From assembly GCA_000091205.1 (NCBI GenBank), contig AP006491.2: DNA of 64,000 bases. One strand, written 5' to 3'. Numbering within the stretch: position 1 is the stretch's first letter; every line of letters starts with the position of its first letter. Positions 11,451-47,185 of this stretch are shown here, piece by piece. The notes beneath the pieces are model-generated. The model worked only from the letters and a program-made list of their open reading frames with translations, did no database searches and was not told the DNA's origin. This stretch comes from Cyanidioschyzon merolae (Eukaryota). A program made the position numbers and the translations under genes.

Positions 11451-11694
11451 CTACGCACCGCGAACCAGCGTTTCATGACACGCACACGCGTGGGGAACTT
11501 CATGGAGGTGAAAGCCTCGACAAGCATTGTCCAATTTCATGCTGCATTGTACATATGCCGTTTTATACAGTTTCCGAATGCCACTGCTGGCTGCGCGCGC
11601 GCAGGCATCCAGCGAGCGATGCGTCGTGGCGTCCTACGAACGCATCCATGCGACTCGTCTCGCAACTGCGTTTCACGACGAAGGCTCAAACGCA

Positions 11695-19088: not shown

Positions 19089-19197
19089 AGTGGGGCGCTC
19101 TTCACCGCTTTGCTCGACGTGAGCGTGAACGGATGGAGATTTCGCGACTTGCTCCCCAAGCCGGGGTTTTTTCCAACAAAACCCAGCGAGGCACATC
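19089..19197 (+). repeat. ~100-nt dispersed motif ending in a hairpin, copy H2
   Basis: agtggggcgctcttcaccgctttgctcgacgtgagcgtgaacggatggagatttcgcgacttgctccccaagccggggttttttccaacaaaacccagcgaggcacatc. Primary sequence is similar to H1, but the terminal hairpin (ggggtttt..aaaaccc) has a different sequence at the same position. Confidence 0.45.
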
Positions 19198-19509
19198 GTT
19201 TGACGCTGGCACAGACGGTATCCCGTCCATGAACCTGAAAGCCGGTGCTAAGAGCGTCGGCTTCGCAATGGCCCCCGCGCTCGAGCGACCGTTCAACGCC
19301 CACCTGACCCAACGAGGTATGCTGCGCGCACGTCAAAAGGTCTTGCGGGTCTTGCGGGGACCACGGTTTCCCCGGAGCTCGCCAAGATGCGCCCTCCGCT
19401 GAACACAGCGCGCGCTCTGCATCCAGTTAGTTAGGTATGCAACGCGCCAAACAGGCTGACACAGCGAATGCCTGTCGTCGCATCTGCCGGGAACCGCTGC
19501 AGCAGACGC

Positions 19510-21963: not shown

Positions 21964-23354
21964 GGACGGCAGACGAGTATCGTGAACAGTGGAGGCGTTC
22001 CTTGCCGGGAATCGCTTTGAAGCGAAAACGCTCCCGGCATTTGAAATGGATCGGTGCACTTGGTTTAGAAAGATACAGTTATGTACAGTTAAGTCGCATT
22101 CACGTCCAAGTTCAAAACGCTGGCGCTCCAACACATGCCCGCCACGCCTGCTCTATCCTGCTCTAGACGCTCACAGTACAACATACTTGTTCGAAGCGGT
22201 TCCCCTGTGGTCAGCCATGCCCGCGAATAACCCAGTAACTACCGACATCTGACTTTCACAGCAAATGCGTGGTGTGTTTATGGCTAGCGTCGGCCGCAGC
22301 CACGCGAAGCGGTACGAGCGTGCGCGTTGCAGACGCGGCGCTCGACTGTGGATGCTGCAGACGGCGTTTTTTCGGGGTGCAGGCTGCAGTGCTGTCTTCT
22401 GAACCGCGCTATGCATCGCGTCGCGTCGTTACGTGCACCAGCAGCGACCACATTGTACGTGTTGTGGGTCCAGGAGCGTGCCGGATCGGCGTACGCACAC
22501 ATGCGTTCATAACTTGCACCGGAAACCGCCTATGCAAGTCGACTTGCTGCTTGTTGACGCTGTACACAGGATGTATATCATGCGAGCGAGCGTAGACCAG
22601 CGTATACGCTATCCAAGTCGATATAAGGACGACGAGCGTTTCTACACGGGAGACAGAGCGGCGACGCTTCCGCGCCAGTGCGATGCGGCACGTGATCCCC
22701 TGAACGAAAAAAAAACCCTTCGGGAGCACCACATCCATCAACGTCTATTTCCGCTACGCGAGAATATGCATGAAAAGCGGGCCCAGTGACCATAGCGCTT
22801 CGGAGCTGGCCAATAAAGGCAGGATCCCGAAGCTGCCGCGCCGGTGCACAGCGCGCTGCATCGAAGCATGCTGCCTGCACGTTCGAACAACTGGACGCTT
22901 CGCTTCCGTCCACCGCGCAAGGACGTAGGACTGATCTGAAGGCACCTTCTTAGCGATGTTGGTACTGAAATCCCATAAAACAGAATCCGGGCACGATCTG
23001 CGGTGAACAGCAGGTACCAGGAACGTACGCTGAAGTGTCGCGTACGATCACGTATTATCCATGGAAGGCCAGTTGCCGACGTCCTTCGGAAGGCCCCGGC
23101 ATCGACCCAGAGGCCACGAAAACGCCCTGAACGCACCACGGACACTGTGAATGTATGTATGCACATGTGCTTACTTGCCTGCATGCTTAACAGGTCTCCA
23201 GCGGTGCGCTGCCGGTTCCCCGCTCCACGCTGCGGGCAAGCGATGCTTGCGGCCGCCTCGAACGCAACCGAGCGTCATCGAGAAACCGCTGTCATGTGCG
23301 ACTGCGACCTTGCTGCAGGCCGTTGTCGAGCGCCGCGAAATGACCCGCACTTGC

Positions 23355-23378
23355 CACACACACACACACACACACACA
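23355..23378. repeat. (CA)12 dinucleotide microsatellite
   Basis: cacacacacacacacacacacaca read directly. Confidence 0.9.
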
Positions 23379-23431
23379 GATGTCTCAATGAAGCTGCCCT
23401 GAAATGCTCATCCAGGTTGCCGCAATGCTAT

Positions 23432-26400
23432 TCAGAACTCAATCAAGTCGCGTTCCGCCTGAGCCGGCCGCGAGTTCGACTCGGTTGCGGCCAGCGATTC
23501 GTTGTTGGTCTCTCGTCCGAAACCGTCAGACACCAAGGCATCATCGAAGCGAGCCCAGTCTTCGGCAAGCGGGTCGGCAACGGCATCAGACGCATCGGCA
23601 TTCCAGGTTGGACGCAAGGCCGCAGAGTGACTGGCGTCGGCGGCAGCGGCCTTGCCCCCAGCCGTACGATCGCACTCAACCGACGAAACGCCCGAATGTC
23701 GCTGCTCTAATGTAGTTTGTTGCAGCAAATACTCCAGTGGAACTGCCGATGGGACCGCATGCTCCGTAACACTCCCCTGTGTTGGTCCAGCGGACGCGCC
23801 CGCTGACGCTGGCATCGAGAAGGTCCTCTCGGCGGCAACGCCTGGATCGTATCCAGCACCAGCACCAGCACCAGCACCAGCGCCTGCACCAGCTCCGCTA
23901 GCGTCAACATCGTCGCCCAGCACGGAAGCGCGGTCCGCTGTGGTGTAACTCGTCATCGAAAAGCGGGGTCCGCCAAACTTGGCAGTGCTCTCACGGCGCT
24001 CGCCACGAACCCAGTCCGCGAGCGTACCAACCAGACGCTTCACACGGCGTTTCTGTGAACGTCTCACCGCAGCGCTGCCAACAGGAAGCGCCAGACTCGG
24101 ATCCAAGGAGTCACCAGTAGATGAGCCACGTGCTGTGCTGTGCGCCCGCAGCGTCGCCTTCTCTGCTGCAGCGAGCGCAGATCGCGTCGTTTCACTCATG
24201 CCGGCAGAGAAGGGTCCCCAGGCAGCTTCGGGGATTTGCTGGAGCTGGGCAAAGCCAGCGAGGCGCCCAACCAGCTGTCCACTGCGAAATAGCGGCACCT
24301 GAAATGGATGCCGCTCCGCCAGCCCGCGCGCTGAGAGCACCAACGAGCCAGCGACCTGGTCGTCACCGACCGGTGACATCATCATCAACTGTGCGTAAAT
24401 GAGCTGCTCCTGAATTTCCGCAAGCTCGCTGGGCAGGTACGGCAGTGCAAATCGCCCTGTCCAACGCGGGGCACGATTCATCACCGGACCGGAGAGCGGC
24501 GTGCTAAAGATATCCGCTAGAATATCACCGGAAAAGCTCAGATAATACTGCAGCGGGGTATCTGCATGGTGGAGTTGTTGAGCGCTGCCAGCCGCTCCAG
24601 TCGCCATCACCACCGGTAACTGATGAAGCACCGCCTGTAACGAGTCCAGCACCAAACTGACCCGCACCGGGTGCAGGGGTATCTGGGGTCCAATGCGCGC
24701 TGCGTCGATGTACTCGTCAACCGCAACCGCAATATCCTGTGCTTCAATGCGTCCAGAAGCTGCCAAGCCGGAACTCTGACGTGCTCGATGAGGCGCGTTA
24801 CACGCCAAAACGGATCGTTGGTCGATCACCGTATACTCGGAGCTCGCGGTGGTCACATGAACTGCCCGTGCCGCAGCGCCCAGCATCGCGAGGCCGCTCA
24901 GGTCGCCCAGTGCCCCAGCAGCGTACCAGTAGTCCCACTGGAGCAGCGTATCCCGATCGGAGCGCCCGAGCTGGAGCGACTGCAGCGCCGGGAGCAACTC
25001 GCCGCGTCCACGCAAGCGACCTCCGACGAAACATACACTGGTGCCGTAGAGACGCAGACCAATCGCCACAAGGCCGCTCGGACCGTGCTCCGCGGCTACC
25101 GAGGACTCACTGACTTCGGCTACGGTGTCGGCGGCGTCGATGCGCACCAGCACGGCAAGTGCAGCGCCACCGCGCGGCAACGCTCTCGCCGCCGCACATC
25201 GGTACAGGCCGTGCGCCTCGATGTCCAGGGGTAGAGCGGCGAGCCCGAACCTCCTGCCCGAGGCACCAGAATCCGGGAGTACCAGCGCAATCACGGTTGG
25301 TGGCTGGTCGGCCGGGCCCGGCAAGCCCCAGTCTGCAGCCGTTGCAGGCCAGGTAGGCTTGCTGGCACTCGCAACTCGGATCTGAATTCGAAATGCCCCC
25401 GCTGGAGCATGCGGAAGCAACGATGCCGGCACCATGAGTCCGTAGTTGCCCGCCCAGGTGAGCAGTGCACGCAGGAAAACCTCTCGCAGGGCCGGGTGAG
25501 GAAACACGAGGTCCAGCGGCATCGGCTGCTGTTCACCGCGGAAGCGGAGACGCAACCGATATCGCCCTCGATGCTGTTCGGTGCGCTCGTACTGCACCAG
25601 GCTCTGGCGTGGATAACTGTACTCGATGTGCTCAGGGGTCCGAACGACGAGGTCTCGGTCTCGGAGCAGCACCATGACATGGACACGCTCGCCGCTTCCG
25701 GTGAGCCACTGCTGCTGGTCGAACATTGTCCAGACCGAATCGGAAGCAGCGCCAGTGCCGGCGTCTGGAAGCGGTACCCCAGAGGCGTCTGCGTCGCGAG
25801 CCACAGTCGCGTATCCTAGCATGAGGTCATAGGCGTCTTGGCGATCGTCATCGACAAAATGCTTATTGAAAATGCGCACTGCCGACTTGAGGCCATCCTG
25901 CAGGAGGCCCTTGGTGGAGCGTTTCCCACTACGTGCAATATCCGCCTTCATGGCTGCAGTGCCGGCGTACTGGTAGGAAAGCGCGTCTGCGTTATTGCCC
26001 CAGAGGCGCACGAACGTCGACTCACCGTCCGGGGAGAGCTGGATTGACCGCTGCGCTCGTCCGGTCGCGTCAGGGGATGGTCTGCTCGTGCTCGTGTCCC
26101 GCAAAATGAGGGCCAGCTGCTGCTGCAAAACCTGTTTCGCGAGTATACTCTGAACGACACCAGTTCGATCCAAACAATCCACACAATTGACTCGGAAAAT
26201 GCCAGTCTGCAGCTGTCGCGCATCCAAGAGAAAGCCGTACGCGTCCAGATCGTTCAGGAGGCGACTCAATAGCGCACAGATGCCGCGCTCGTACTCCTTC
26301 CCACTACAGTGACGATGAAAGTCGAACTCGACAAACCGAGGTGCCCAGCTGGGTCGAGCATCAGTGCCGCGACTCGCGGCCAACTCTACCTGTTGGGCGT

Positions 26401-27493
26401 ACGCTCGTGCCAGGGTCGACTCGGAGCCTTCGCTGTTCACGAGCGATACCGCAGTGCATCGTCCGTAGGAGCGGCTGAGATTCTTGAAGTGCTGCGTGAA
26501 CGCAGCCTGCGACTGCAACAGGGGAGCATCGAGCTCCGGCGCTGGTCGAAGTGCTCCCTTGGTTTGTCGCCAGAAGACGGGTATCGAACCTCGGAGCGTG
26601 ACAAACGAGGTACAGCGATGTTCATGGAAGACAATCTGTTCGGTTTCAACAAAATTCGCGACATGCCCGGACTGGTCGATCCCCCGAGAGTGGTAACGCG
26701 TGCCGGCACGCTTTCGACTCTTCCGGCTCACGACGGTGACGTAGACGCGCTCGATCCCGCCGAGGCCGTTCGCCATAGCAGAGCTGTAAATAGGGAGTTC
26801 GACGGTACCGACGTATCCCATGATCGCACGAACTGCCCAGGTGCTTGCAACCGGGCCCAGTGCTTCCACCATGGGCTTGTTCCACCAGAAGCTGGAGCCA
26901 CTGGCTCCAGTGAGCTGCTTCTGCTGCGTGCGCACCAGGTCAGCCTCGTAGCTGAAGAAGAGGAAACCCGACTCGAGCATCTTCAGCATCGAAACAGATA
27001 CGTCACGATCCGTCTTCACTGCTGGCTGTGGATGTAGTTTCACCAGTCGCACGCGGCTGGCAGTGTAGACCGGCGCTAGTCGATAGCTTGCCGAGGCTCG
27101 CGTCGACGCTTCGTTGCCTGGCGGTGAACTCGTCACTGGCAACGGGACAGAGCCAGCGCGCTTCACTTCGGTTACGGTGACCAAGTATGGACCTGAACTC
27201 AAGAAAGTGGCACCTAGAAGCGCTGCCGCAGCGTCAATACCGAGCACCTCTCGGGCGTTGTAGGCACTGGCCGGCGCCGGCAGCAGGTACGGCTCTGCGT
27301 GGAACGGGAGCGCCAGCTGTGGACCCGCCGTTCTCTCAAAACTCGCACTGTTTGCTGCGTCTATGACAGCATTTGGTGATGCTGCAGGATCCGGTGCCCA
27401 GCGAGAGCAATCCTGAAGCACGAGTCCGGTGGGCAGATGAATGACGCGCAACGCTCGAGGTGGCGGTGCTTCTGCTGGGCGCGCTGTTGCCAT
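23432..27493 (-). CDS. SAC-domain phosphoinositide phosphatase, synaptojanin/Inp5x-like (SAC domain plus degenerate inositol-5-phosphatase-like region)
   Basis: SAC catalytic CX5R(T/S) motif FRVNCVDCLDRTGVVQS (yeast Sac1 RTNCMDCLDRTN), with upstream ..GTRYHSRGID..GHVANFVETEQI... The downstream region has 5-phosphatase-like blocks (GLVAIGLRLYGTSVCFVGG, LGDLSG, NRAPRWTGRFAL) that are degenerate relative to consensus. The track start at 27508 is GTG; the first ATG is 27493 (MATAR...). Single 4-kb exon. Confidence 0.75.
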   Translation of the reverse strand: MATARPAEAPPPRALRVIHLPTGLVLQDCSRWAPDPAASPNAVIDAANSASFERTAGPQLALPFHAEPYLLPAPASAYNAREVLGIDAAAALLGATFLSSGPYLVTVTEVKRAGSVPLPVTSSPPGNEASTRASASYRLAPVYTASRVRLVKLHPQPAVKTDRDVSVSMLKMLESGFLFFSYEADLVRTQQKQLTGASGSSFWWNKPMVEALGPVASTWAVRAIMGYVGTVELPIYSSAMANGLGGIERVYVTVVSRKSRKRAGTRYHSRGIDQSGHVANFVETEQIVFHEHRCTSFVTLRGSIPVFWRQTKGALRPAPELDAPLLQSQAAFTQHFKNLSRSYGRCTAVSLVNSEGSESTLARAYAQQVELAASRGTDARPSWAPRFVEFDFHRHCSGKEYERGICALLSRLLNDLDAYGFLLDARQLQTGIFRVNCVDCLDRTGVVQSILAKQVLQQQLALILRDTSTSRPSPDATGRAQRSIQLSPDGESTFVRLWGNNADALSYQYAGTAAMKADIARSGKRSTKGLLQDGLKSAVRIFNKHFVDDDRQDAYDLMLGYATVARDADASGVPLPDAGTGAASDSVWTMFDQQQWLTGSGERVHVMVLLRDRDLVVRTPEHIEYSYPRQSLVQYERTEQHRGRYRLRLRFRGEQQPMPLDLVFPHPALREVFLRALLTWAGNYGLMVPASLLPHAPAGAFRIQIRVASASKPTWPATAADWGLPGPADQPPTVIALVLPDSGASGRRFGLAALPLDIEAHGLYRCAAARALPRGGAALAVLVRIDAADTVAEVSESSVAAEHGPSGLVAIGLRLYGTSVCFVGGRLRGRGELLPALQSLQLGRSDRDTLLQWDYWYAAGALGDLSGLAMLGAAARAVHVTTASSEYTVIDQRSVLACNAPHRARQSSGLAASGRIEAQDIAVAVDEYIDAARIGPQIPLHPVRVSLVLDSLQAVLHQLPVVMATGAAGSAQQLHHADTPLQYYLSFSGDILADIFSTPLSGPVMNRAPRWTGRFALPYLPSELAEIQEQLIYAQLMMMSPVGDDQVAGSLVLSARGLAERHPFQVPLFRSGQLVGRLAGFAQLQQIPEAAWGPFSAGMSETTRSALAAAEKATLRAHSTARGSSTGDSLDPSLALPVGSAAVRRSQKRRVKRLVGTLADWVRGERRESTAKFGGPRFSMTSYTTADRASVLGDDVDASGAGAGAGAGAGAGAGYDPGVAAERTFSMPASAGASAGPTQGSVTEHAVPSAVPLEYLLQQTTLEQRHSGVSSVECDRTAGGKAAAADASHSAALRPTWNADASDAVADPLAEDWARFDDALVSDGFGRETNNESLAATESNSRPAQAERDLIEF
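23855..23896 (-). repeat. (GCACCA)n hexanucleotide repeat encoding a Gly-Ala repeat near the C-terminus of the SAC phosphatase
   Basis: agcaccagcaccagcaccagcaccagcgcctgcaccagctcc on the plus strand; the minus-strand translation is GAGAGAGAGAGAGAG. Confidence 0.8.
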
Positions 27494-28050
27494 GTTGCTA
27501 ACCGGCACCAGGCTTGGGCCTATGCTTCGGATGTTCCGAACCCGAAAGCAACCTGTGCGCGATGTGGCACACAGTTGCCACGAACTCCGCCGCAGCAGCG
27601 GTACTGTTGCTGGAAACGCAACGTTCCGGGCGCTCCGCAGCCGCTCCGCCCGAAAAAGCGCCTGTCGCGAAGCGGCCTGGGCGGGACACGGGGGCAGCGT
27701 TTGATGTTCATTATTGTCTCATTTAATGCTGGTGGTGCATGGGGCGCGCTCCTCTGGAAACGTTCCCCCTACGTTTGTCCACTGGACGGTGTCGTTTCAT
27801 GGGGTACCAAGTTGCTTCGCAAGTTGCTCGGCGTACAAGTATGCCCCTGGTGCGTGGATGCATTGCTTGAGGCGTTGACAGGAATCGAACAGAATCGAAT
27901 CCTGCACTCAGTGTACGCTCCCGTCGACGGAGCGGGCGTGCACCCCTGGCGCTGCAGCTCGTCTGGCGTCGTCATCTACCAGCGAACGACGCGTCTTGCA
28001 GAACAGTTGCTTTCGCAACTCCTTTGGACAAGTTCGACGACGCACAAATC

Positions 28051-29237
28051 TTACCGCTGCACAAGCGATACAGGTGGCGAACGCTGCCCAGTCTCGTGGA
28101 ATCGATGGAAAGCGCGTTTGCATATGCTATATGGACGCGCACGTAGGCTCAGCATGAAGCGTACAGAGCGTTGTCCTCTGCTCAACACGGCTCTCAGCGC
28201 GTTCACGCGAGTCCCGATACCGTTACGCCCCTTGTTGGCATGCCTGCTGGTGTCCGTCATTTCGGATTGCCGTTCAGACGGAGCGATGGAAACGTTGTGC
28301 AGCTTCATCTGCTTCCCGTTCAGGTCTTTGGCGGTATCACCGTGATCTAGGGATTCGACAAGCGCCATGACGCGGTTCAACCGCAGATCCACGCGTACCA
28401 GAAGGTGTTTCTCTTCGTCTGCGTTGAACAGTTTGCATTGAGTCTCGGTGCTCGACACGGAATCAATTTTTACGAAATGAATGCAGATTGAGATTCCATC
28501 GAACGCCATCATCCCGGTCCATTGCTTTCCATTTTCTCCGAGTAAACCAGAAACCTTGGAGGAGCTCTGCCTGTGCTCTTCTCGAAGGTTTTCAAATACG
28601 TCGTAGTTGCTCGCTGAGACGGGCTCCTTCTTCGCCTTGTCTTCGATTTGGCGCGGTTGCATACACGCATGCATGCGCTCGCTATACTCCATGTATGTTT
28701 GTATCGCTTGGCATGCAGAGGCACTGGATGACGGACGGTGCTGAAACGCGCATGTTCTGTCTATTGATCGACGATTCCTCAAGAATCCTGGTCATCTTCT
28801 CTGTCGCAAGCACGCCCACACATCAAAGCGCCTTTGCACGCGCTTTTCCACGCACGAGCAGAGAAACAACAGCGTAGTTCAGGGCTGCTGTATGTACTAA
28901 AGCACAGTTTGTCAAAGCACGATTTACAGACACACGGGATCGTGGATGCGAACGACTCTTCTATTGATCGGGCAGCGCGACCGTGGCGTTTTCCAACCCG
29001 ATACGACGCCACTGACTGTATGCAAACAGGGAGAAAATCGGCCAGCGTAACCAGGAACGCAACGCCGATCTCAGCTGCAAACTCCTTCACCGCGTTTGAT
29101 CGATGGAAAGCGACGTCATTGAAGAGCACCACATAAGAATTCGGGAAAGCGAAGCCAAGAAAAGTGCTTGGATGAAAAACGTGGTGTGAAACGAGCCTGT
29201 CCTTGTTGGCGATTCGCAGGCGACCAAACGATAGCAT
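28051..29237 (-). CDS. hypothetical protein, possibly one gene split over two abutting ORFs (28779..29237 and 28051..28782) by a frameshift
   Basis: Two minus-strand ORFs meet within 3 nt in different frames. The upstream piece starts with an ATG at 29237. Both pieces contain similar segments (YVVLFNDVAFHRSNAVKEF / YDVFENLREEHRQSSSKV). No confident family assignment. Confidence 0.25.
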
Positions 29238-31014
29238 TGCGGCTTCAGTTCATGGTATCGGCGTGCTCGCACGTCTCCTCTTTGCGGAGAGCGGTTTGTC
29301 GCTCTTGGAGTGCCCACACACAGGTTTATGATTTTTCCGAATTCAATCTCATCGACTAAGACGGACATCTGTCCACCGTTGTTAAGGGCGCTCGGGTTTC
29401 CATACGTCGTCGATATTCTGTTGTTCGACGCGCGTCACTCTATCATAGAGATGATCGTTTCCCTTCATATATCCGTATCTTTTCGTTGCCGCTCGAATCA
29501 ACTGTGCGAAAAAGTCCTAACCCGGGGGTTGTCTCATGGTATTCCTTAGAACACGTGTTGTGTGGAATATGTTGACGAGGAAACAGTCGTGCGGATAGCG
29601 TTTAAAAAACGTTGTTTTTCGTCTGCGTGCTGTTCAGGACAATACACAACAGACAGTTGGATACTCTACCTGTACAAGTAAGACTGTTGTTCCGAAATCT
29701 AGCAGAGACAGCATCGAGTCTCCATGCAATTGTTCTCCTATCAACATGATGCGATCGTTTTTTGTTTCATATCTGCGAGAAAAACAAACGACAGTGCAGG
29801 TTGGAACGAGTATGCCGCAACGCACCGCTCTGCATGTAACGCACTTGCTGTCCATCCATGTAGAGTCTCGTGCGTTTTCACGATGTGTAAGGGACTGGAG
29901 GCCTCCGCACCAACTCCACATTGCTCTACAGGTTCGCTTTTGTTTTCGCAACATCCAGAATGAGAATCCAGAGCACTTGGTTCACTTTTCTTTGTTGGTC
30001 CATCATAAAACATAACCCGAACGCTGAAGCCCCAGCGCCACGACTGTAAAGCGGCTAACCAGAGGTCATCCCGCAAACGAAAGCGATGGTGCCCGACGCC
30101 GACGCCAGCGATGGATCGTCTTCGAGTCTCGGGCTCAGCGCACGTCGAGTGTTTCAGCGGGCTGCAGAGCACACGCAAGAACGTAAAGCAGTATTTTCGG
30201 GTTAGCGCATCGAGCGGTCTGGCGTGATATACCCAGAAACGACACCCACACCCAGACGCCTTCCAGGGAAGCACCGCATACAATGATCCCGCCGAACGAC
30301 ACGATGCAGGTGCTGTCGTCGACCTTGGTCCTTGCTCACTGTTTTCCAATCAGCACTTTGTGCGACATGTCGCGTTTTATCGGGGACTAGGGAATCAGAG
30401 GCGCCAAGCTGCTGAGCTAGTCGCTGTTCGGAAAGAGGAACAGCTCCAGGTAGCGTCGTCTGCTGCGCGTGACGCGCCCGCGCTCGGCCTGCTGCTGGGA
30501 ACAAGAGCCCTTGGCAGGTCGCGGAAAGCGTCCAAGTCCCTATTAGCACAGGCGTGAGCACAGCACACGCGAATGCATTGCCTCACGGAAAATACTGCCG
30601 TCCGACAGGTTCCCGGGTGCTGTCCTGTTGCTATACTGTCCATGCTGAAAGCCCCGCGGTGCCGTTCATGATGCTGCACACAGCCGACTATGACGATACC
30701 GAGCCAGGAAGCGTTGTCGTCGTCGTTGTCGTTGTCGTCTCCTGGGCACACTCGAGGTGCGCTGGTATACATCGCGCAGTTGCCAGCGTCATGGACTGAG
30801 CGTTACTGTCGCCACACAGGGTGCTCGCGACGGGCCTTGTATCTGAAAACATGAATGATTGGGGTTCGCGGGGGCCAGCGGCTACCAGCAGGAGCGCATT
30901 CTACATAGCTTCTCGACCTGAGCGATTCGATATACGGCACGTATCCGCGGCATGACTCGAGTGCCGGAGTTGCTGCCATTCACCTGGTTTTCATGAGCTA
31001 GAGGTGCGGCTACA

Positions 31015-32463
31015 TTACGCGCTGCGCATTGCCTCGGTCGCAACGGGTGTTTGCCGGGCCCCAGTTCGGACCACGAGACGACCATCTGCAGAGAGGGAGG
31101 CCAGCATGGCGTTTCGCGCAGCATCGTGCCATGCAAGCGCCACAATAAGGTCATCGTGGTCTCGAGCGCTCTCTTCAAATGTAAAACCTTCGCAAAAGAT
31201 CGTCGGGGCATCGTTGTCGCTGCGCACCTGATCGCCATCAACAGCGCCTGTCCTGTCTAATGATGAAATGGACGGCGTTGCTGCTGACACGGCTGTCTGT
31301 AGACGGCCTCGCCAAGTAGAGACCACTGGCTCTTCATTCGCACCGTACGCAGCAACCGCTACGCGTATGCTCGAATCTAACGCTTCTAGTGCGATTGCAG
31401 AGGCAAAGACGCTCCATGGTGCGCGATCACCAACGGCAGAACCAGCGAGCTGCTGAACTTGGCCTCGGAGGAGATCCAAAAACAGCAGGACGCCATCGTC
31501 CGTGGAGGCAACAATGCCCCCGGACTGCTGCGGCATGCGTGCGGCTGCCAGCACAGTGCTGCTCAAGCCGTGTGGAGTCGTCGACTGCAACGCATGGAGT
31601 CGCAGGGCCTCGTTGTCGGTATCGCACGGGAGGAGCTCGTAGGCTCTCTGGGCCAGGGACCCACATTCCGCGGCTTTCTTTCGTGATGATGTCGAGGAAG
31701 CAGCATGGAGCTCGAACTGGCCGGCGATCGACTGTTGTCTGCGGTCAAACAGTAGCAGCGCGCCGCTGGTGTGTGCAGCGAACACCAGCCCAGGCGCTTG
31801 CTCGTCGACAAAGCAGGCGCAGGTCCAGTGTAATGCGGCAAGCTGGTGTCGGCCCGTATAGATCATTCTAGGGATATGTGGTACGCTCCAGACACACTGG
31901 GTCTGCAGGGTGTTTGCGTCGAGTAGTTGTAGCGTGTGTGCCAGGCCTAGCACGACGCTTTCGCCGGTGAGCGCCACATCCATCGCTTGAAGCGTTTCCG
32001 GATGTGGAAGTTCCGCGTTCGGCACTGGCTCCGGATTGCTCACAATGACATGCTGTTTCGCAGCCTCTCCGAAGCAGCCGAGGGCATCTTCTAGTCGAGG
32101 TAGCCGAACGGCCTCCAAGGCCGGTTTTCCACGCTCGGCATCCTGGCCAGCGCAGTAGACAACGGGACCCAAGCCACGAGCCAACAACGCTATCTGTGCT
32201 GTTTGCTCGATCGGTAACGCTGCCACAAAGTGCAAGTCTTTCTTTTCAGGTGCAAACTCGACGAGTAACAGTTCACTGCGTGCACTCGAGGAGAGCCCGC
32301 TTCTGTACGCGGGTGTCTGTGTCGCGGGCCTGCCGCCCGACGCTACCACGAAACGCACTCTGTTCCGAGCCGCGTCAGACAGCTGCCCTGTACTCCCTGT
32401 GAAGACCGGAAGAATGCCGCGGGCGGGTTGTTTGATCCCGATCGCAGCCGAAGCTGTCTCCAT
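31015..32463 (-). CDS. hypothetical protein (482 aa), no recognisable domain
   Basis: ATG-initiated 1.45-kb ORF with ordinary amino-acid composition for this genome. Lies between neighbouring genes without overlap. Confidence 0.4.
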   Translation of the reverse strand: METASAAIGIKQPARGILPVFTGSTGQLSDAARNRVRFVVASGGRPATQTPAYRSGLSSSARSELLLVEFAPEKKDLHFVAALPIEQTAQIALLARGLGPVVYCAGQDAERGKPALEAVRLPRLEDALGCFGEAAKQHVIVSNPEPVPNAELPHPETLQAMDVALTGESVVLGLAHTLQLLDANTLQTQCVWSVPHIPRMIYTGRHQLAALHWTCACFVDEQAPGLVFAAHTSGALLLFDRRQQSIAGQFELHAASSTSSRKKAAECGSLAQRAYELLPCDTDNEALRLHALQSTTPHGLSSTVLAAARMPQQSGGIVASTDDGVLLFLDLLRGQVQQLAGSAVGDRAPWSVFASAIALEALDSSIRVAVAAYGANEEPVVSTWRGRLQTAVSAATPSISSLDRTGAVDGDQVRSDNDAPTIFCEGFTFEESARDHDDLIVALAWHDAARNAMLASLSADGRLVVRTGARQTPVATEAMRSA

Positions 32464-32856
32464 GGTGCACGAGGGAGAGGTTCCTGGTGTTCTCTCTGCA
32501 CTCAGGACACCAGCATGGTGCAGCTAGATCCTGTTGCTGGTGAAGCGTGCCACGAGCAGCGCACCGTTCAAGCGCAGCGTGCTCGATGCGAAAGCACTGG
32601 TAGCTCGCTGGGCGTGTCGGTCGTCCCAGTCGTAGCGTTTTCGCGCACCAGCGGATGAGTTGCAGTGAAGGAGTAGAGCGGCATAGGGTCGAGGCCAGCG
32701 GGTACGTCGAAGCTGTCCCAGTACGAATAGTCCATAAAAGTATAGCATCCAATCAACCCTCCGTTCGCCTGAAGCGTACCATGTCCGTTGCTACCCTCTG
32801 TCTTCCGTTTCGATGGTACTCCATCCCCAGGTATCGGTAACCAAATGCTTTTTCGC

Positions 32857-33171
32857 GGTTTATAGAAGAAGCGTTCCGAGCGCGTTGATTTTGAGAAATA
32901 AAGAATCTGAGGGAAAAGTATGAAGGCGTGGATTTCGGGTACCCGGTGTCGTCAGGCGCCGGAAATAAACGAACAAAACATCGTATTGCTGCCGACAATC
33001 GAGCGATGAAGAGCAATTGACGAAAAATAGAAGACGGTTGGAGATAGGGGAGAAAAGGTGTTTGTAAGACGGGACGATGACGAGAGTGTAGTGGTTCAGA
33101 AGGGCACGAATGCGAGGAATCCTTGCAGCAGTGCATTCAACAAGAGGCAACAAACGCAAGGAGTTTGTGAA
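32857..33171 (+). mobile_element. miniature Fanzor-derived element copy F4, 3'-truncated at a tail-to-tail junction with copy B
   Basis: 5' end agaagaagcgttccgagcgcgttgattttgag matches the mini/full 5' terminus. The internal sequence aligns with F3 across the mini-specific deletion junction (...ataggggagaaaaggtgtttgtaagacgggacgatgacgagag...). The sense frame reads RRARMRGILAAVHSTRGNKRKEFVN and then stops matching at 33171. Confidence 0.6.
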
Positions 33172-35165
33172 CTCGTGGCCTTCTTGCCATTTCCTTTTCG
33201 GTTAGCGCTACGTGCTTTCCTATCTCCCAAGCGGGTCGCTGGCAATTTCCCATCTCGATCCTCTGGAGTTTACAGCCCAGTTCGTGGTGTGTGATTACGA
33301 TGTCCGGAACTCATCTATCGGTATGGTCACGAAACCGTCTGCGCACTCCTTGCACGTTCTTGTCGACGGTGCTGGTATGCTCTCTCTTTGGGTCACCCGC
33401 CGTCCTGCTCCATACGTTACCACGAGCCTCTGACTCTTGTCCTCCTTGAGGACGCTCAACTCATTGAAAAAGCTGGTCAACGCATGCTCCCTTCCCACAA
33501 TACAAGCTCAAACACAGACGAGCTCACGGAAGTTTGGTGTACGCTTTCCACAGCGCCTCGTCATGCGCAGCTTGAGTGTCCATGACCTCTGGAAAATCTT
33601 GAAAATCCGCATGTCGGATCGTCACCTCGCTCATAGCTTCCCTGTGATCCTTCATTCCTGCATTCCATGTCTCAATTTTCTTCCCTGCATTCATGATTCC
33701 CGATTCTCGATAGTATCTCGCGCTCGAGAGCCTCAAAAGTCGCATATCTCTCTGACGTACTCTACCCTCAGTATCATCTTCCGCACGCTTGGGTACAGCG
33801 ATGGTAATGATGTTCGTGTTGCCGGGGTCCGCGCCGACGACAAAGTCGTTCTCCTGCACCTTGTTCGTCGTAGGACACGCCTTCTTGTTATCTTCGTGCT
33901 CCGCCGACGGCGATATCGAGGACGAAACAGGACGAGCTGCCTTCAACTGCCGATCGTGAACACACTAGGATACTCCATCGGTTTCGATGATGCCCGTGAA
34001 TACCGTTTTCTTGCTCGTTTCGAGACGCTCGAAATCGAAGATATTCTTCCAGGGCTTCTCGCGGTTTTCACCGGTGAACCCTGTCTTCCTTACATCGAAC
34101 CCCCGGACAGATCTCCTTCATGATGCCGTAGAGGACTCCGGCGTCGATCGTTCCAAAATCGAACTTGATGATGCATAATGGAACGACGTTGAAGCGCTTC
34201 CCCATTAGGGTCGCCCACCGTTTCAACGACTCTTCGTTTGCTTCCACACCGTGCTCCATATCCGCCTCGGGATCGAGTTGTCGGTCCAGAAACACGAAAT
34301 ATCGCACGACGAGGCGATCGTGTCTTTCCTTGATGTTTTTCAACTCTGATATCTTTTCTGCTGGATTCGGCATCCCCAGCACCGCACGGTGCTCTCCTAT
34401 AACCGCACGGATGACAGAAGCTTCGCTCGTGCTCTCGTTCGACGCCTTCGCTCCGACGAATTCGATCTCATCTTCATTCTGACTATCGTTCGCGATGCCA
34501 TTGATGATGGCCTTTGTCGCTCTGCAAGAGGGGCCCGCGTCCAGCGCAGACACGGCGCGTATCATGAAATGTTCGAGGTTCACGGTCATGCGGTTCTTCA
34601 GGTTCTCGTGGTGCTTCATTGCCCCGTATTCGTAAATATCCGCGTCACCCTTGTATCGAGTACCGTTGGAGCGGTATTTCGCGAAGTTTTCGTGGAGGGC
34701 ATACATTCGCGCATTTCTCCTCGACGTTTCCCGCGTGCCAATCATCAGATGACGAATACAGGTCTTGTCGAAAAATTCTTCCGGAACCTCGACTGTTTTG
34801 GTGTCCATCACGTCGCGATACATATCTCTCGCGATATGCATCAGTGCTACAGCAGCGAAAAGAACACGCATAGAGTGCGACTCGAAACGGGGTCTGATGG
34901 CGTCTCGCAACTTCTGCCTACGTGGATCCTCGATATGTTTGAGAAGACAGGCTTTCACCAGCATCTCGTGGTACTGTCGTCTTTCGTGCAGCTTTTGACG
35001 TAGGGCCTCGCCCTTTTGCTTCTTCGTCCTGTTTCGTTCCTATCCCATTAGCACTGTTTGTCGTTTTTCTCCGCCTGCCGGTAGCAAGGGCCCTTCAGGA
35101 TCCCCGACTTGCACCCGCATAGCTTTGCTTTGGCGTTTTTATTTCGTCAAAACGACCGCACGTCT
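33168..35165 (-). mobile_element. Fanzor element copy B, 3'-truncated; body ~99% identical to copy A, 5' end of a different sub-lineage
   Basis: 33245-34985 is near-identical to 5660-7400 (only a few aa differences in the paired ORFs). The 5'-UTR part 34985-35165 is only ~70% similar to A. 5' terminus aaaaagacgtgcggtcg (rc at 35154-35170) aligns with the F3 terminus. The 3' part ends at 33168-33180 (sense ..MARRPRV), ~45 nt upstream of the RuvC-III codons. Confidence 0.7.
33170..34964 (-). pseudogene. TnpB/Fanzor-like nuclease gene, truncated and carrying the same frame lesions as copy A
   Basis: ORFs 34068..34964, 33524..33946, 33295..33498 plus the MGNCQRPAWEIGKHVALTEKEMARRPRV piece mirror the ORF pieces of copy A, including the same TAG and frameshift. 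Confidence 0.7.
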
Positions 35166-36160
35166 TTTTGGCCTTAGATGAGGGCTTTCTCGGAGGGAGC
35201 GTGGCTTTCGCAAGAAAAACGACATGTGCCCCGATGTGTTACCGAGTAATGAACGCTCAGCGTTTCGCCCGGGGGAGCGATCATCACGTTTCACGATAGA
35301 AAACACTCCTACAATGCGCTTGAACCACGGAGCGCACAGACGAACAAAAATCACCCCTACCCCGATAGAATCGGCAAAAAGCTCGAACGCAAGCGATATG
35401 GTGATATGCCACGTTGCCCAATAGAAGGACGTCGCCAGACGTCCGGTAAAAGTCTTCAATGCTTGGACAAATTGGTTGGTGCTGTTGCATGTGTCTTTTC
35501 TACAAGTGAAACTGAGGCCACCAAATAAATCTTCTAAAGCTATAATAGATGATGATTTCGTCGTTCTCTTCGAGCTCGATCGAACGTACAACGGGCGTCC
35601 TTCACCTCGAATACCCATTGACGCTCCGAGCGTGCCTTGCGAAGCAAGTTTCATCAACTGAACAAACAAACTGACGATCCGGTGGTTCCTATCGATCGTG
35701 ACGTTCCAGGGACTCTGTTATTGCGATTTGGATGGAAGATGCCATTGCTTGAACGATGACTCTTTTTGAGATTGTATCCCAGTGTTTTCAGGATCATAGG
35801 CGCGACTTGGTGAGAAACAGAGACGCCTGTGGCGACTATGATCGTCGCTGTTGCTTTCCGAAAATGGTGATCAACGGATCGTTTTCTAAGATCGACTGCA
35901 AGCGACCTCTATGAATATCGATCTCTGGCACGGAGTGCATCTACATTTTTCTTATAGTTTTCGCCAACCATCTGAGTACGTCGGTATGACTGTCCTAAAC
36001 GAGGAATGCAGTCCTCCTTGGACTGTTCAGAAATGAATGTAAATGCTACATGCAAATCATCTACGATCTACACTATGCATTGCATTGCGATTTCGATCTC
36101 CTAGACATCGCAGCGGAAGTGAAACAGAATTTAGTACAAAGACTACAAGAACGGAAACCT
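35166..36160 (-). repeat. ~1-kb repeat S, copy 1, directly abutting the 5' end of Fanzor copy B
   Basis: Its reverse complement aligns block by block (~75-85%, with indels) to 52740-53753. Example: aagaaaaatgtagatgcactccgtgccagagatcgatattcatagaggtcgcttgcagtcgatcttagaaaacgatccgttgatcacc versus aagaaacaagtagatgcgctctgtgtcagaaattggtattcttaaagatcgcttgaagtcgatagtagaaaacgacctgttcagc. No conserved long ORF. Confidence 0.55.
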
Positions 36161-36781
36161 CGGGCCTCTTTGATGGTAGCGTTCACGCATCCGATAGATG
36201 CCAATATGACACATCTGGTGAAAAAGCAGCTAAACATTCGCGTCGATTCGTTTTCTGGGTCTGTTCAGGGCATGGTGCTGGCATGTGCGTGCTGGCACTC
36301 ACCAGCACTCACTGAACGTTGCTTTGCAGTCGCGAAATGCGAAAGCATCCCGCTCCAACGCGAGTTCGCGGTGATGAACTTGTCTTCAGCATCGCTTCCA
36401 AAGTCCGAATGCGACCAGCAAATGCCTCTTCATGGGAAGCTTGCGGCAAATACCATTTCAGTTTGACATGGATGAATTCGTGCTCGACATTTCACGAGTG
36501 CAGCGCAAGAGGTCAATTCACTGTCCGCTTACACCTGTGCATGCGACGGCAACATAGAAACCGCAAACGAGTGCTCTGCATTCATTGGAAATACCCTGCA
36601 GCATAGGCATCTGGATCCCATCCAATCGTTCAGAGCGCTTTTCCGCACGGCGCTGCTGAGGGCGCACTGATCCGTAAAACGCTTGGGATGTTTCGGAAGA
36701 CATCTCGCTGCCTTTCGAGTCGAGCTTGTTGCGAGAGGAAAACCCAGCAGCCGGGGGACGTGCACGAGTTGCGTTTTTGCT

Positions 36782-40349: not shown

Positions 40350-42945
40350 GCTGTCGATTTGCGCACCAGGGAGATCTGTCAGTTTCGAGTCACGACGCGT
40401 ATGCTGCCGTTGAAGGGAAACGCGATCCTGATCAATAGCGTGCTGCTCTAATGTGCAAGTTGTACTTGCGTTAAAGACGTAGCAAAGTACAGTTCTTCAG
40501 TTCATTTGTGTCTCAAACCTCAAACAAGTGTATTCAACTGTTTTTTCGCAGTATATAACTGAAGCGTTCAAAGTCCGTTACAAAAGATAAAAAAGGAAAG
40601 TTATGGAAAAGGAAGTGGAGGATCCTGGAGGCCCAGTGTGGCTGGCCGCCAGAAAAAAAAACAAAAAAATAGTGCCGAGTCCAGAAGAAAACGAAGCGAG
40701 AAAGAAGCAAAATGGGGGCCCTACGTCGAAGGCTGCAAGAAAGACGTCTGTACAACGAGACGGTGGTGAAAGCCTGTCTTCGTAAACATACCAAGGATCC
40801 GTACAAGGCAAAGTTGCGAGGCGCTATCAGAAACCGTGTCGGGTTGTAATCCATAACGATTATAAAGGGGTCGTCAGTACGAATGCATTTGGCGAGGGAG
40901 ATGTACGAAGACGTGACGCACGTGGAAACAGTCGAGGTTCTGGTCGAGTTTTTCGACAAGACCTCTATTCGTCACCTGATGCTTGGTACGGGGGAATCGT
41001 CGACAAAGAAAGAGCTAGTGCATGCCCTCCACGAAAACTTCGCAGAATTCCGCTTCGAGGGAACTCGATACAAGGGTGACGGAAATATTTACACATGCGG
41101 GGTGATGAAGTACATCACGAACCTGAGGAACCATTTGACTATGAACCCGGAGCGTTTCATGATACGCACCGTCTTTGCGCTGTACTCGGGCCTGTCTCGC
41201 AAAGGAGTATGGGCGATTACCAATGGCATCACGAACGATCGCAAGCATGATGAGATCGAATTCGTCGACAGGAAGGCGTCACGCAGGAGAAGGTTTAAAA
41301 CTTCTGTCATCCGTGCGGTTATACAAGAGCACCGCGCAGTCTTGGGGTTGGCGAATTCAATAGAAAACATATCAGAGTTGGAAAAAGATAAGGAAAGATA
41401 CGATCGCCTCATTCTGCGCTATTTAGTGTTCTTAGACCGAGAACTCGAACGCAAGGCAGAGGTGAAGCTGAGTGAGGAAAAAATGAAGAGTGGAGGAGAC
41501 GGAAGGCTGACCTAATGGGGAAGCGCTTTAACGGCGTTCCGTTGTGCAACACCAAGTCACATTTCGTGAGTATCGACTCCAGACTCTTTTACGGCATCAC
41601 GAAGGAGATCAGTCCCGACTTCAATGTTAGCAGGGAGGACTTCACCGGCGAAAACCGGGAGACGTGCGGTAAGAAAAGTATCTTCTATTTCAAACGTCTG
41701 AAAGTGAGCAAACAAAAGATATTCACTGGGATGATCGAAACCGATGGAGTAGCCATGTGTGCACACTATCGGCGCTTGACGACAGATCGTCCAGTTCCGC
41801 CCGTGACGAAGCATGAAGAGAAGAAGGATGCGGGTCCTGCGATGCAGGAGGTGGAGGATAACGACCTGGTCGTTGACGCGACGAAGCATGAAGATAACAA
41901 CAAGGCGGCTCCTGCGACGCAGAAAGTGCAAGATATCGACTTTGTCGTTGGCGCGGACCCCGGAAACACAAATATCATCACCATCGCAGCACCGAAGTGT
42001 GCGGAAGATGGTACTGACGGTAGTTTACGTCAGAAAGACATGCGTCTATTGAGGTTCTCGAGAGCTAGATACTACCGAGAATCGGGAATCATGAATGCGG
42101 GGAAGAAAATCGAGAGCTGGAATTCAGGAATGAAGGATCACCTAGAAGCTTTGAGCGAGGTGACGAGCCGCGGAGCCGACATTGAAGCTTTTCGGGAGTC
42201 CATGGAAGGTCCGCGTTGCTCATTGGGATACGCTGTGGGAAGAGTACACCAAGCGCCGGTGGGCTCGTCTGCGTAAGAATCTGTATTGTGGTAAGCAACG
42301 TGCATTTGCCAACTTTTTCAATGCGTTGAGCGCCCTCAAGGAGAATGAAAGTCAGAGGCTCGTCGTAGCGTACGGAGCAGAGCGCTGGGCGTCCAAAAAA
42401 GGGACTACACCAGCTCCGTCGACAAGAACGTACAAGGAGTGCGCACGGCGTTTCGCTACGATACCTGTAGACGAGTTCCGAACATCGTATACACACCACG
42501 AACTGGGGTGTACGCATCACAGAGTGGAGATGGAAACGTGCCAGAGGAGTCCTGAGGATATAAAAAAATACGGAGCGCTGATGGAGGGGCAAATGGAAAG
42601 GAGGGCGAAATTTAGCGGATTGCTTGCATTAGTAAGTACACTCAATGATGGCAAGAAACGGATGGAATTCGTGAACAGAGACTTTCACGCAGTGATCAAT
42701 GTAAGATGTGCGGTAATGGAGAAAAGGCCTCGATACTGGACACGAGAGAACTTTGTTGGACAACCTCTCAAAGTGGAACTATATAAGAAAAAGCTGGAAG
42801 CAGTAATGGGTGGCCGGTCCAAAAAAACTGGGAGGCGTCAGCACATCAGTTAGAGACGATTTGTCTAGGGCGCGTTCGCCGCCACTGCTGAACACCGTCG
42901 GCGTCGTTCGACTTTTGCAAAGTGTTCGGTATCGGTGTCGGTGAC
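40350..42945 (+). mobile_element. Fanzor (eukaryotic TnpB-like) element copy C, degraded; core 40524..42844 plus flanks shared with copy A
   Basis: 5' terminus caaacaagtgtattc (40521-40535). 5' leader with ggaggatcctggaggcc. Right-end core gggaggcgtcagcac (42830-42844), followed by atcagttagagacgatttgtctagggcgcgttcgcc, which matches copy A downstream. Confidence 0.75.
40711..42853 (+). pseudogene. TnpB/Fanzor-like RuvC nuclease gene, disrupted by an in-frame stop near 40790 and frameshifts near 41515 and 42200
   Basis: ORFs 40883..41515, 41515..42276, 42182..42853 are homologous along their length to the copy A pieces. Motifs: [48 protein letters not shown] then HHELGCTHHRVEMETC, KKRMEFVNRDFHAVINVRCAVM. 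N-terminus MGALRRRLQERRLYNETVVKACLRKH then stop. Confidence 0.7.
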
Positions 42946-45634: not shown

Positions 45635-47185
45635 ATGGGTGCCTCGTCGGATATGGTTACGGATAGGAGCACAGTCACTGCTACGGAAGCGGAGGTTGGT
45701 CGTCAGGGTCGGGCGGGGCGGGCGCTCTTCGTTGCTGGGTCACCTCCGGTGTACAGCACGTTTCACCACAACGGTGGTGCGGTGTCCATTGTAAGCGCAC
45801 CGACCGGGAGTCGCGGCCTTTCGACAACGATAGCGGCCTCGTCGAGCGGCGCTTACCCCACAGCGAGTCCGTTTACGCCAACAGCGTCGCCGAGTGCGGG
45901 CACAGAGGGGCTTGGGCGCCCGTCGTCGGCGCCTGCGGGCGCCAGCGTCCTGAATGGAAGTTTTTTCGGGCGCTCTGTGGGCTTTAAGCTGCCTACGAAT
46001 AAACAGAGCGCGATTTCGTCGGCGCGGGGAGGCAGCGGTGCCATCAGCGATAGCAATGCCGTCAACGGTATGCTGGCGCTGGACGTCAAGGAGGGAAGCC
46101 GAGTCTCACCGCCGCGACGCGGCTCGACGACAGACGCCAGAAGTTGCCTGGAGTGTCCGTCAGACTGGACTGTAAGCGAGCTCGCCGCGCGGCTTGTCTC
46201 GGAACCTGATGGATGCAAAGCGACGGAGTGTGCCTGGAGTCCGCAGGTATCGGGTAGCATACCGCCGCGCTCGCCAGCGGCCTATCGGCATACGCAGACA
46301 GGCGCTGTTCCAGAACGAGGCCGAGACCATCCAGCAGGCACGAACCTGCTGGACTCGCATCGGATGTCGAGTCCTGGTATCGACCCGTCGCAGGAGTTGA
46401 TATCCGTCGACAGCGACTGGATACCTGCTTCTGCTTCCTATTCAGCTGTTAGCGTGATGTCATTCTCGCCGAGCGGCAACGAGGTGGCCCGAATGGATCT
46501 GGGCCGCTCGTCCCCGTTCCGAGGGCTCTCGTTCGATGATCTGAGTATTATTGAGCGTTCACCGCGCAAAGAACGTTTAGCGCAAATGCTGCTGTCCACA
46601 CGTGGCAACAACGTGCGACGTTTCTCGCGTTCACCGCTCGGCGCGACGCCCCTGTTTAGCACCAATCCCGGGTCTCTAGCCGATGCCTCGGCGAGCGAAG
46701 ACACGCGTTCGTGTCGCGTCTGTGGTGGACGACGCATACGGCCTTGTTTCGACTGCAACGGACGTGGTCAATTTCAGCGCATTGAAGTCCAAAACCATGT
46801 TGTAGGCGGTGAAACGTGTCGCGCATGCCGCGGCACAGGTATGATCGACTGCCCCGCCTGTGCTCGAGAGTTGTATAGAAAAGCGCGTGCAGCAGCCGAA
46901 ATCAAGCTTGAAACCGCCACCCGTGATCAAGCGGCACCAGTCTCGCTGCCCGCTGCATTGACATCACGACAACATGAACCAGCGGCTGCCACGCCTCATG
47001 CCATGGGAACGGAAACCGCGTCGGCGCACAGCGTGCAGGATTCGCTTGCCGCTGCCGCGACAGAGCATGTGGTATCCAGCGTCTCTGCGAATGCTGAATG
47101 GGAACCCCAAACCTCAAACGTTGCGGTTGGAAAGCTGACAACATGTACAACAGACGGCCATGGTCTGATTCCGCTCTCCTCGTGA
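45635..47185 (+). CDS. hypothetical Ser/Ala/Pro-rich protein with DnaJ-type CxxCxGxG zinc-finger domain
   Basis: Four consecutive CxxC-type repeats: CRVCGGRR, CFDCNGRG, CRACRGTG, CPAC. This resembles the DnaJ-like Zn-finger domain of small plastid assembly factors (BSD2/PSA2/LQY1-like). The rest is low complexity. ATG at 45635. Confidence 0.45.
   Translation: MGASSDMVTDRSTVTATEAEVGRQGRAGRALFVAGSPPVYSTFHHNGGAVSIVSAPTGSRGLSTTIAASSSGAYPTASPFTPTASPSAGTEGLGRPSSAPAGASVLNGSFFGRSVGFKLPTNKQSAISSARGGSGAISDSNAVNGMLALDVKEGSRVSPPRRGSTTDARSCLECPSDWTVSELAARLVSEPDGCKATECAWSPQVSGSIPPRSPAAYRHTQTGAVPERGRDHPAGTNLLDSHRMSSPGIDPSQELISVDSDWIPASASYSAVSVMSFSPSGNEVARMDLGRSSPFRGLSFDDLSIIERSPRKERLAQMLLSTRGNNVRRFSRSPLGATPLFSTNPGSLADASASEDTRSCRVCGGRRIRPCFDCNGRGQFQRIEVQNHVVGGETCRACRGTGMIDCPACARELYRKARAAAEIKLETATRDQAAPVSLPAALTSRQHEPAAATPHAMGTETASAHSVQDSLAAAATEHVVSSVSANAEWEPQTSNVAVGKLTTCTTDGHGLIPLSS

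Follow-up and report, generated by a model that had tools for sequence, protein, structure and literature searches.

Two Fanzor1 elements are fused tail to tail at positions 33169–33172 of the window, the 64,000-nt stretch of Cyanidioschyzon merolae DNA analyzed here, and each has lost its 3' end at the fusion point. The arrangement is best explained, with a probability of roughly 0.7, by one old joining event between neighboring, convergent and decaying CMe-1 Fanzor1 copies, the short copy F4 on the plus strand and the long copy B on the minus strand. Only these two of the ~10 copies in the window are without the RuvC-III end, and each lacks it against the other, which argues for one joining event and not for recurrent cutting.

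Fanzor1 copies in the window

The repeated elements in the window belong to CMe-1A, the single Fanzor1 family of C. merolae (Bao & Jurka 2013, PMC3627910). This family comprises ~150 copies, each ~80% identical to a ~3-kb consensus; terminal inverted repeats and target-site duplications were not found, and the transposon class was left unknown (PMC3627910). The window copies occur in the same organism, encode a Fanzor1/TnpB-like protein with D...E...RD RuvC motifs, and are likewise numerous, old, ~75–80% alike and devoid of evident terminal inverted repeats. The 2013 paper describes the family and not the F4/B junction. Self-blastn and tblastn searches identify ~10 copies in the 64-kb window, listed here together with the junction and with genes of the same stretch; copies A and F1–F3 were delimited by self-blastn, translation and alignment.

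3575–4121, minus strand: F1, F-type short copy with a complete 3' part
5291–7736, minus strand: copy A, full length with frameshifts, 3' end intact (..RGLLPFVSTINGKKRMEFLNRDCNAAINI..)
10969–11514, minus strand: F2, F-type short copy with a complete 3' part
27832–28620, minus strand: copy D, an older copy
31015–32463, minus strand: CMI278C
32800–33172, plus strand: F4, F-type copy, 3'-truncated before the RuvC-III Arg-Asp codons (5' boundary ±50 nt)
33169–33172: junction microhomology, GAAC (GTTC on the minus strand)
33173–35103, minus strand: copy B overall, a long copy
33173–33249, minus strand: native 3' tail of copy B (..QRPAWEIGKHVALTEKEMARRPRV)
33250–34857, minus strand: core of copy B, ~99% identical to copy A 5661–7268, with sharp edges
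34858–35103, minus strand: leader and N-terminal codons of copy B, a diverged 5' part, 64–84% identical to copy A
40392–42915, plus strand: copy C, full length with two frameshifts, ~78% identical to A and B
45635–47185: CMI284C
53754–54224, plus strand: F3, F-type short copy with a complete 3' part
58886–59875: PsbO
61316–63231, plus strand: copy E, an older copy

Copies A and C serve as comparators, and the element coordinates of both breakpoints are taken from copy A. By translation, all copies in the window prove to be pseudogenes; the two junction partners, B and F4, both contain stops and frameshifts and are long-dead pseudogenes.

The four short copies share one architecture, in which a 5' leader and the first ~55 codons are fused to a C-terminal part and the 3' end. 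The F-type 5' part runs to ..YHEMLVK (after divergence, ..DDETAV), the C-terminal part reads ..RRA(K/R)xRGLL..STSGNKRMEFVNRDFNAAINI.., and the two ends meet at a short stretch that is ambiguous in the alignment. F4 accordingly carries a 5' end region, with an ATG at 32921, joined to the C-terminal ..RGILAAVHSTRGNKRKEFVN. Judged by their alignments, F1–F4 are an internally deleted derivative family. Internally deleted, non-autonomous derivatives of cut-and-paste transposons, such as Ds from Ac, and deleted P and mariner elements, arise via abortive gap repair. The F-type copies resemble them in keeping the putative 5' and 3' ends and in being present in several copies. The F4/B junction is of a different kind: no internal deletion, it connects the tails of two separate elements.

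Several observations support the assignment of the window elements to the Fanzor1/TnpB type. Translations of copies A and C, and P0001, contain the RuvC motifs in the order D ... E (xDEFRTS) ... RD(xNAAxNI), with the last as NRDFNAAINI. The core of copy B encodes RuvC-I (GADPGNTNI) and RuvC-II (IDEFRTS), with frameshifts common to copies A and B; F4 and B are without the RD motif, which was lost by truncation. Single-sequence Pfam and PDB searches return no match for the family, and a distant relative, P0047, has a weak PF07282 match below the cutoff (E = 0.0012). A profile built from 10 homologues matches the structure of the Spizellomyces punctatus Fanzor SpuFz1 (PDB 8GKH) with E = 9.6e-11, aligning RuvC-I, RuvC-II and RuvC-III. 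The two differ in that the second zinc-finger Cys pair is lost in the C. merolae family (RGLLALVST for HGLLGCTNPNC), that the N-terminal halves have no sequence relation, and that all window copies are pseudogenes. The C4 zinc finger of the Bao & Jurka motif, between RuvC-II and RuvC-III, is thus not found as such; the copies have HH..C..C and then RGLLALVST. The zinc finger is degenerate in the CMe family, which is still the published CMe-1A Fanzor1. Beyond the stop codon, ~110 nt are conserved across copies and include a terminal hairpin.

Structure and age of the junction

On the plus strand, F4 reads ..RGILAAVHSTRGNKRKEFVN (DNA ..GGCAACAAACGCAAGGAGTTTGTGAAC) and matches its family up to 33172. 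Past this position, F1–F3, A and C have CGAGAC, encoding the Arg-Asp of RuvC-III, whereas the window has TCGTGGCC; other family members go on with RD(F)NAAINI where F4 stops. On the minus strand, copy B reads ..ALTEKEMARRPRV, and its DNA homology to copy A (5591–7514) and to copy C stops at 33179/33180, within the range given in the preliminary description of this locus. The minus-strand end of B, ..GGCAAGAAGGCCACGAGTTC, encodes ..EMARRPRV and aligns with ..MERRAKV of A and C, which go on with RGLL; copy B itself ends at 33169–33173, 20 codons upstream of the expected RuvC-III. Translations and family alignments confirm that both elements are 3'-truncated upstream of the RuvC-III codons, as had been described. 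The tail-to-tail reading also stands, with the F4 match ending at 33172 instead of 33171.

The bases GAAC at the junction fit both F4 (GTGAAC) and B (GAGTTC), and no filler is present. In the family alignments, with a slash at the breakpoint, F-type copies read GTGAAC/CGAGAC and A-type copies AAAGTTC/GGGGAC. The microhomology is therefore real and 4 nt long, where ~4–6 nt had been given, and the last retained bases of F4 and B lie 59 nt apart in the aligned element coordinates, which replaces the earlier figure of ~45 nt. By the standard chance formula, blunt joins would exhibit a microhomology of at least 4 nt in ~1.4% of cases. Breakpoints no more than 59 nt apart in an element of ~2.4–3 kb would be expected by chance in ~4–5% of cases, for a coincidence that was chosen after the fact.

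Two other readings of the junction sequence were rejected. The minus-strand reading of B appears to continue into the family (HK-LLAFV for RG-LLPFV), a by-product of a 3' arm that is complementary to a 5' arm (the arms are described below). A derivation of TTTGTG from B would need four changes in invariant Arg-Gly codons, and TTTGTG matches the F-type consensus exactly. A nested insertion would leave an F-type 3' part beyond the insert, and none is present past segment X, a stretch upstream of B (36102 onward), or elsewhere near the junction.

The junction is older than ~0.7–0.9% sequence divergence. Its 24-mer is present in the metagenome contig Ga0080006_1176861 (L002), which aligns to window positions 18645–33370 with 99.30% identity and has SNPs on the F4 side. 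Three contigs with a close CMI278C variant (L016, L017 and L018) also cross the junction: L016 extends over it to 33376, with SNPs at 33176, 33181 and 33183, and L017 and L018 continue for 8 nt and 3 nt past it. These four contigs derive from different metagenomes, are 99.1–99.3% identical to the window and show distinct SNPs to either side of the junction, which itself is the same in 4/4; at least three haplotypes have ...GTGAAC/TCG....

The same contigs bear on whether the junction is an assembly artefact, a collapse or chimeric join, an alternative already entertained in the preliminary description. The region is rich in repeats, and several contigs end inside it or close by (L001 at 32749, L017 at 33180, L018 at 33175, and L002 and L016 at ~33370). 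However, the window is C. merolae 10D sequence, and the 10D genome is a finished Sanger assembly; the four contigs, from different samples and with SNPs of their own, cross the junction; and both sides of it are unique and diverged from all other copies. The finished sequence and the four independent contigs, with at least three haplotypes, refute a collapse, and the likelihood of any artefact is negligible.

Exact look-up of the 298-aa ORF of copy B and of a neighboring ORF yielded no contigs. All related contigs already have the junction, and an orthologous locus without it was not found, so deletion, inversion and template switch are not told apart.

The inverted repeat at the breakpoints

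Intact copies contain an imperfect 13-nt inverted repeat, GTTCGAGGACTCC, followed after ~33 nt by GGAGTTCGTGAAC. Its outer bases are GTTC (in the Val-Arg codons of ..KVRGLL) and GAAC (in ..FVN). Both arms can be placed in F4 by alignment.

33110–33122, plus strand: 5' arm in F4 (ATGCGAGGAATCC), V/M-R-G-I/L-L codons
33160–33172, plus strand: 3' arm in F4 (GGAGTTTGTGAAC), codons (K)EFVN, the last F4 sequence before the junction

In copy B the cut falls directly behind base 4 of the 5' arm, and in F4 exactly at the end of the 3' arm. As far as alignment can tell, the inverted repeat is a real sequence feature of conserved coding DNA: across 11 aligned sequences, the stem pairs in 71% of cells in register, compared with 21–53% in slid registers. 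Covariation of the stem in this alignment is not above that of shuffles, and RNAalifold finds no consensus structure for the stem region; these two results give no support to a conserved functional hairpin. Strong single-sequence hairpins are found only in F1, L020 and L021, and are inconsistent in single CMe copies. In L020 and L021, at 30–37% amino-acid identity, the hairpins span homologous codons and reach -31 and -33 kcal/mol. The earlier suggestion of a structured region at the break is thus matched by a potentially structured sequence, the imperfect inverted repeat exactly at the breakpoints, and not by a consensus fold or by covariation.

The inverted repeat may have guided the join. 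When two copies converge, one copy's 3' arm and the other's 5' arm, reverse-complemented, would make up short direct repeats on the same strand; alternatively, two nascent sense strands could anneal only at the arms of the inverted repeat. A microhomology-mediated deletion, or a nascent strand that switched from F4 onto the sense strand of B, would produce both the junction and the 59-nt offset, and arm-to-arm joining would leave one copy with the whole stem-loop and the other cut at its 5' foot, hence offset by 59 nt. The 5' arm of B is lost, and the 13-nt pairing is taken from relatives of B. With the F1 5' arm as a proxy, the match to the F4 3' arm as a direct repeat is 9/13 (GGAGT....GAAC); chance alone should yield many matches as good as this among all position pairs in ~600 nt, so this weak homology alone does not fix the join site.

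The proposed join would have occurred through the 4-nt match GAAC/GTTC, either by deletion with microhomology-mediated end joining or by a template switch during replication or repair. It would have removed both 3' ends, meaning the RuvC-III codons and the 3' non-coding end (the putative omega-RNA site), together with anything between the copies. The junction agrees with microhomology-mediated joining as commonly delimited (2–20 nt of common identity and no filler), with GAAC at 33169–33172. It also resembles MMEJ and FoSTeS/MMBIR-type junctions in its 4-nt microhomology, the lack of filler, the joining of non-allelic repeat copies and its inverted orientation relative to the homology between the copies. 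It differs from these in that its mechanism is deduced from one scar. The earlier proposal of a break or template switch followed by end joining keeps its second half, as the microhomology is typical of either route; the site-specific break is not supported.

The result of this event would be a scar without function, fixed in natural populations. Left by two dead members of a family published in 2013, it represents ordinary transposon decay and matters little in itself. It does provide a clean, population-confirmed example of a constraint on such joins: between convergent repeat copies, direct microhomology exists only at palindromic segments, and joins are therefore expected at the two arms of one inverted repeat, with an offset equal to the length of the stem-loop.

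The same arms could also have served an inversion, if the 3' arm in one copy had engaged the 5' arm of another copy in direct orientation. Exactly such a junction would be predicted from recombination, or from a template switch, at short inverted repeats. The inversion would also create a reciprocal head-to-head junction elsewhere, with the F-type 3' part from CGAGACTTTAAC, reverse-complemented, abutting B-type GAGGACTCC...3' end. No such junction is present in the 64-kb window, where every A- or F-type 3' part belongs to a complete 3' end, and an imperfect 13-nt repeat is very short for recombination. An inversion is accordingly improbable. Fold-back and inverted duplication of one element, with priming by the hairpin, would account for the tail-to-tail geometry centered on the stem-loop. 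The two arms should then be copies of one another, but F4 has the family-wide internal deletion and B does not, and by eye the aligned sequences beside the junction are roughly half identical, which makes a fold-back scarcely credible.

It had further been suggested that the break was site-specific, for example by self-targeting, in which an omega-RNA-guided Fanzor nuclease cut sister copies internally and the ends were then joined. Little distance indeed separates the two breaks, and both lie near the 3' region of an RNA-guided nuclease element. Across nine copies, the 3' flanks, at the putative guide position, have at most 10 nt in common with the break region, and shuffled flanks have 9–11 nt. 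Moreover, the copies in the window are pseudogenes without exception, a cut at this site is seen in no other copy, and RuvC-III is retained by the other copies in the window and by those in the loci compared. The guide in known TnpB and Fanzor systems targets the flank of the element and not its interior, with which an interior target is at odds. Taken with the flank comparison, these points give site-specific cleavage no support, and self-targeting is very unlikely.

RuvC-III and the 3' end are still present in copies A, C and F1–F3, copy D keeps a recognizable ..LNETIMNIKRC.., and copy E a decayed C-terminus. No other copy ends at this breakpoint in the window or in loci L003–L015 and L020–L023, a small sample relative to ~150 genomic copies; the P0016 family (L005–L014) has a 1-nt frameshift in the 3' arm and is not truncated here. 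A search for other convergent pairs with a common breakpoint, the check that had been proposed, finds no further tail-to-tail pairs in the compared loci with CMe-type copies.

These counts also bear on the idea that the inverted repeat is a fragile or polymerase-stalling site, possibly the start of an omega-RNA or another structured region, with recurrent truncations and internal deletions as its outcome. Within ~85 nt of element coordinates lie three edges of rearrangements: the F-type internal deletion ends on its right side ~20–30 nt upstream of the B breakpoint, the B breakpoint (GTTC) itself follows, and then the F4 breakpoint (+59). The strong hairpins over homologous codons in the distant relatives L020 and L021 and the 1-nt frameshift inside the 3' arm of the L005–L014 family point in the same direction. 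However, the F4 break depends on the F-type deletion, which left only ~590 nt to break in, and selection to retain cis sequences, or the needs of a mobilizable derivative, may account for the F-type edge. The absence of other truncated copies ending here, in the window and ~20 loci, likewise speaks against a fragile site, as do the lack of covariation and of an RNAalifold consensus and the inconsistency of hairpins in single CMe copies. A fragile site is thus a doubtful explanation, and a true hotspot at the inverted repeat is unlikely. There is little reason to favor a broader version, in which the inverted repeat straddles the degenerate zinc-finger/pre-RuvC-III codons and marks the structure-prone boundary of a 3' cis-module, perhaps an omega-RNA gene, that repeatedly seeded template switches giving rise to F-type derivatives and F4/B-like fusions.

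Probable gene conversion in copy B and transposase remnants

Comparison of copies A and B reveals a mosaic. Positions 33272–34857 of copy B contain 15 mismatches to copy A (~99% identical), whereas the last 77 nt before the junction (33173–33249) are ~60% identical to it. The identity profile drops to ~60–68% beyond two sharp edges, at ~33249 and at ~34858–34902. The sharp edges and the ~99% identity suggest a 1.6-kb gene-conversion tract between the two copies, which lie 27.6 kb apart, and the drop outside them indicates that the 77 nt beside the junction are B's own old sequence. The core of B would then have been homogenized with A after the joining event, or the reverse.

Segment X lies upstream of copy B:

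35057–36102, minus strand: segment X, 73% identical to 52813–53859 upstream of F3 (self-blastn)

Segment X contains a decayed remnant of a Tc1/mariner DDE_3 transposase at ~35175–36030, and a DDE_3 remnant is found upstream of F3 at 52885–53746. A composite element with two 5' ends and terminal inverted repeats was considered and rejected; no inverted repeats exist between 32700–32900 and 35900–36400. In tblastn searches with Tc1/mariner DDE_3 proteins from L020 and L023, both Pfam-checked, DDE_3 remnants were detected upstream of B, D, E and F3, always on the strand of the Fanzor copy. Carriage by a transposon is supported by these remnants and by the presence of ~10 copies in 64 kb.

The window copies thereby add to the CMe-1A description the decayed Tc1/mariner DDE_3 remnants upstream of four copies and the short internally deleted subfamily F1–F4. 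Such side observations may serve the annotation of C. merolae repeats more than the junction itself: Tc1/mariner remnants adjoin a Fanzor1 family whose transposon class stayed open in 2013, the short subfamily retains only the two element ends, and the putative 1.6-kb conversion tract between distant copies would be recent. Just upstream of P0044 and P0045, two distant Fanzor relatives, the DDE_3 genes are intact.

Density of copies and the short subfamily

The 64-kb window carries ~10 copies of Fanzor1. The published total of ~150 copies (PMC3627910), spread over a genome of ~16.5 Mb, corresponds to a mean of ~0.6 per 64 kb, and thus the CMe-1A family is strongly enriched in this part of the CMI chromosome. 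Besides the long or older copies (A–E), it holds four short, internally deleted ones (F1–F4) of ~550–600 bp.

Short internally deleted copies (window coordinates)
3575–4121, F1
10969–11514, F2
about 32800–33172, F4
53754–54224, F3

The subfamily retains solely the 5’ leader with ~55 codons and the final ~390 nt, which run from the codons ahead of RuvC-III through RuvC-III itself to the 3’ non-coding end. The deletion junction is identical in all four, indicating that amplification came after the deletion. F1–F4 are candidate non-autonomous derivatives that keep the presumed omega-RNA region.

Probable exchange between copies A and B, and contig ends at the F4/B junction

Copies B (33250–34857) and A (5661–7268), 27.6 kb apart, have in common a core of ~1.6 kb with ~99% identity (15 mismatches) and the same frameshifts. 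The core edges are sharp, and the flanks outside fall to ~60–68% identity; this is the pattern expected of a tract of recent gene conversion linking two diverged copies of Fanzor. Several metagenome contigs end close to the tail-to-tail join of F4 and B: position 1 of L017 and of L018 corresponds to window 33180 and 33175, respectively, such that both terminate 3–8 nt beyond the junction, and L001 ends at 32749, shortly before F4. The tail of B is probably repeated elsewhere in those samples, breaking the assembly graph; alternatively, some strains may be structurally polymorphic at this junction.

Flanking and 3’ segments

Decayed remnants of Tc1/mariner-type DDE_3 (PF13358) transposases sit a short way upstream of F3, E, B and D, in each case on the strand of the Fanzor copy.

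DDE_3 remnants (window coordinates, strand)
28875–29315, minus, upstream of D
35175–36030, minus, upstream of B
52885–53746, plus, upstream of F3
60122–60859, plus, upstream of E

Intact DDE_3 genes occupy the equivalent position in distant relatives with 30–37% amino-acid identity (L020, 852–1265; L023, 22–864). The upstream region differs in copies A and C, with no DDE_3 match there. The class of CMe-1A was left unassigned in its 2013 description (PMC3627910).

Downstream of the Fanzor stop codon, ~110 nt are conserved across copies (GGAGGCGTCTGCACGTC.GTTGGAGACG..., as judged by eye).

Conserved post-stop segment
window 5291–5440
window 42853–42915
L003, about 12260–12410
L011, about 2470–2600

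A hairpin, also identified by eye, closes the segment; its arms vary in sequence among copies with pairing retained (CACTGCTGCC/GGCAGTGGTG in L003, CGCCGTT/AACGGCG in L011). Together, the segment and its terminal hairpin are a candidate for the omega-RNA scaffold or for the right end of the element.

Variation within the coding region

A single element family on 11 contigs of different samples (L005–L014) bears a 1-nt deletion precisely within the 3’ arm of the inverted repeat preceding RuvC-III (GGAGTT-GTGAAC; for example, L005 position 3490), which frameshifts the ORF ahead of RuvC-III. In L011 the same element has another downstream neighbor, a DAO gene rather than IF-2.

Directly upstream of RuvC-I lies a 75-nt tandem repeat that encodes an acidic 25-residue unit, present in copy C (window 41802–41951) and in the homologous proteins P0001, P0009, P0011 and P0027. 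The number of units differs by copy, from 2 in copy C up to ~5–6 in some metagenome homologues.
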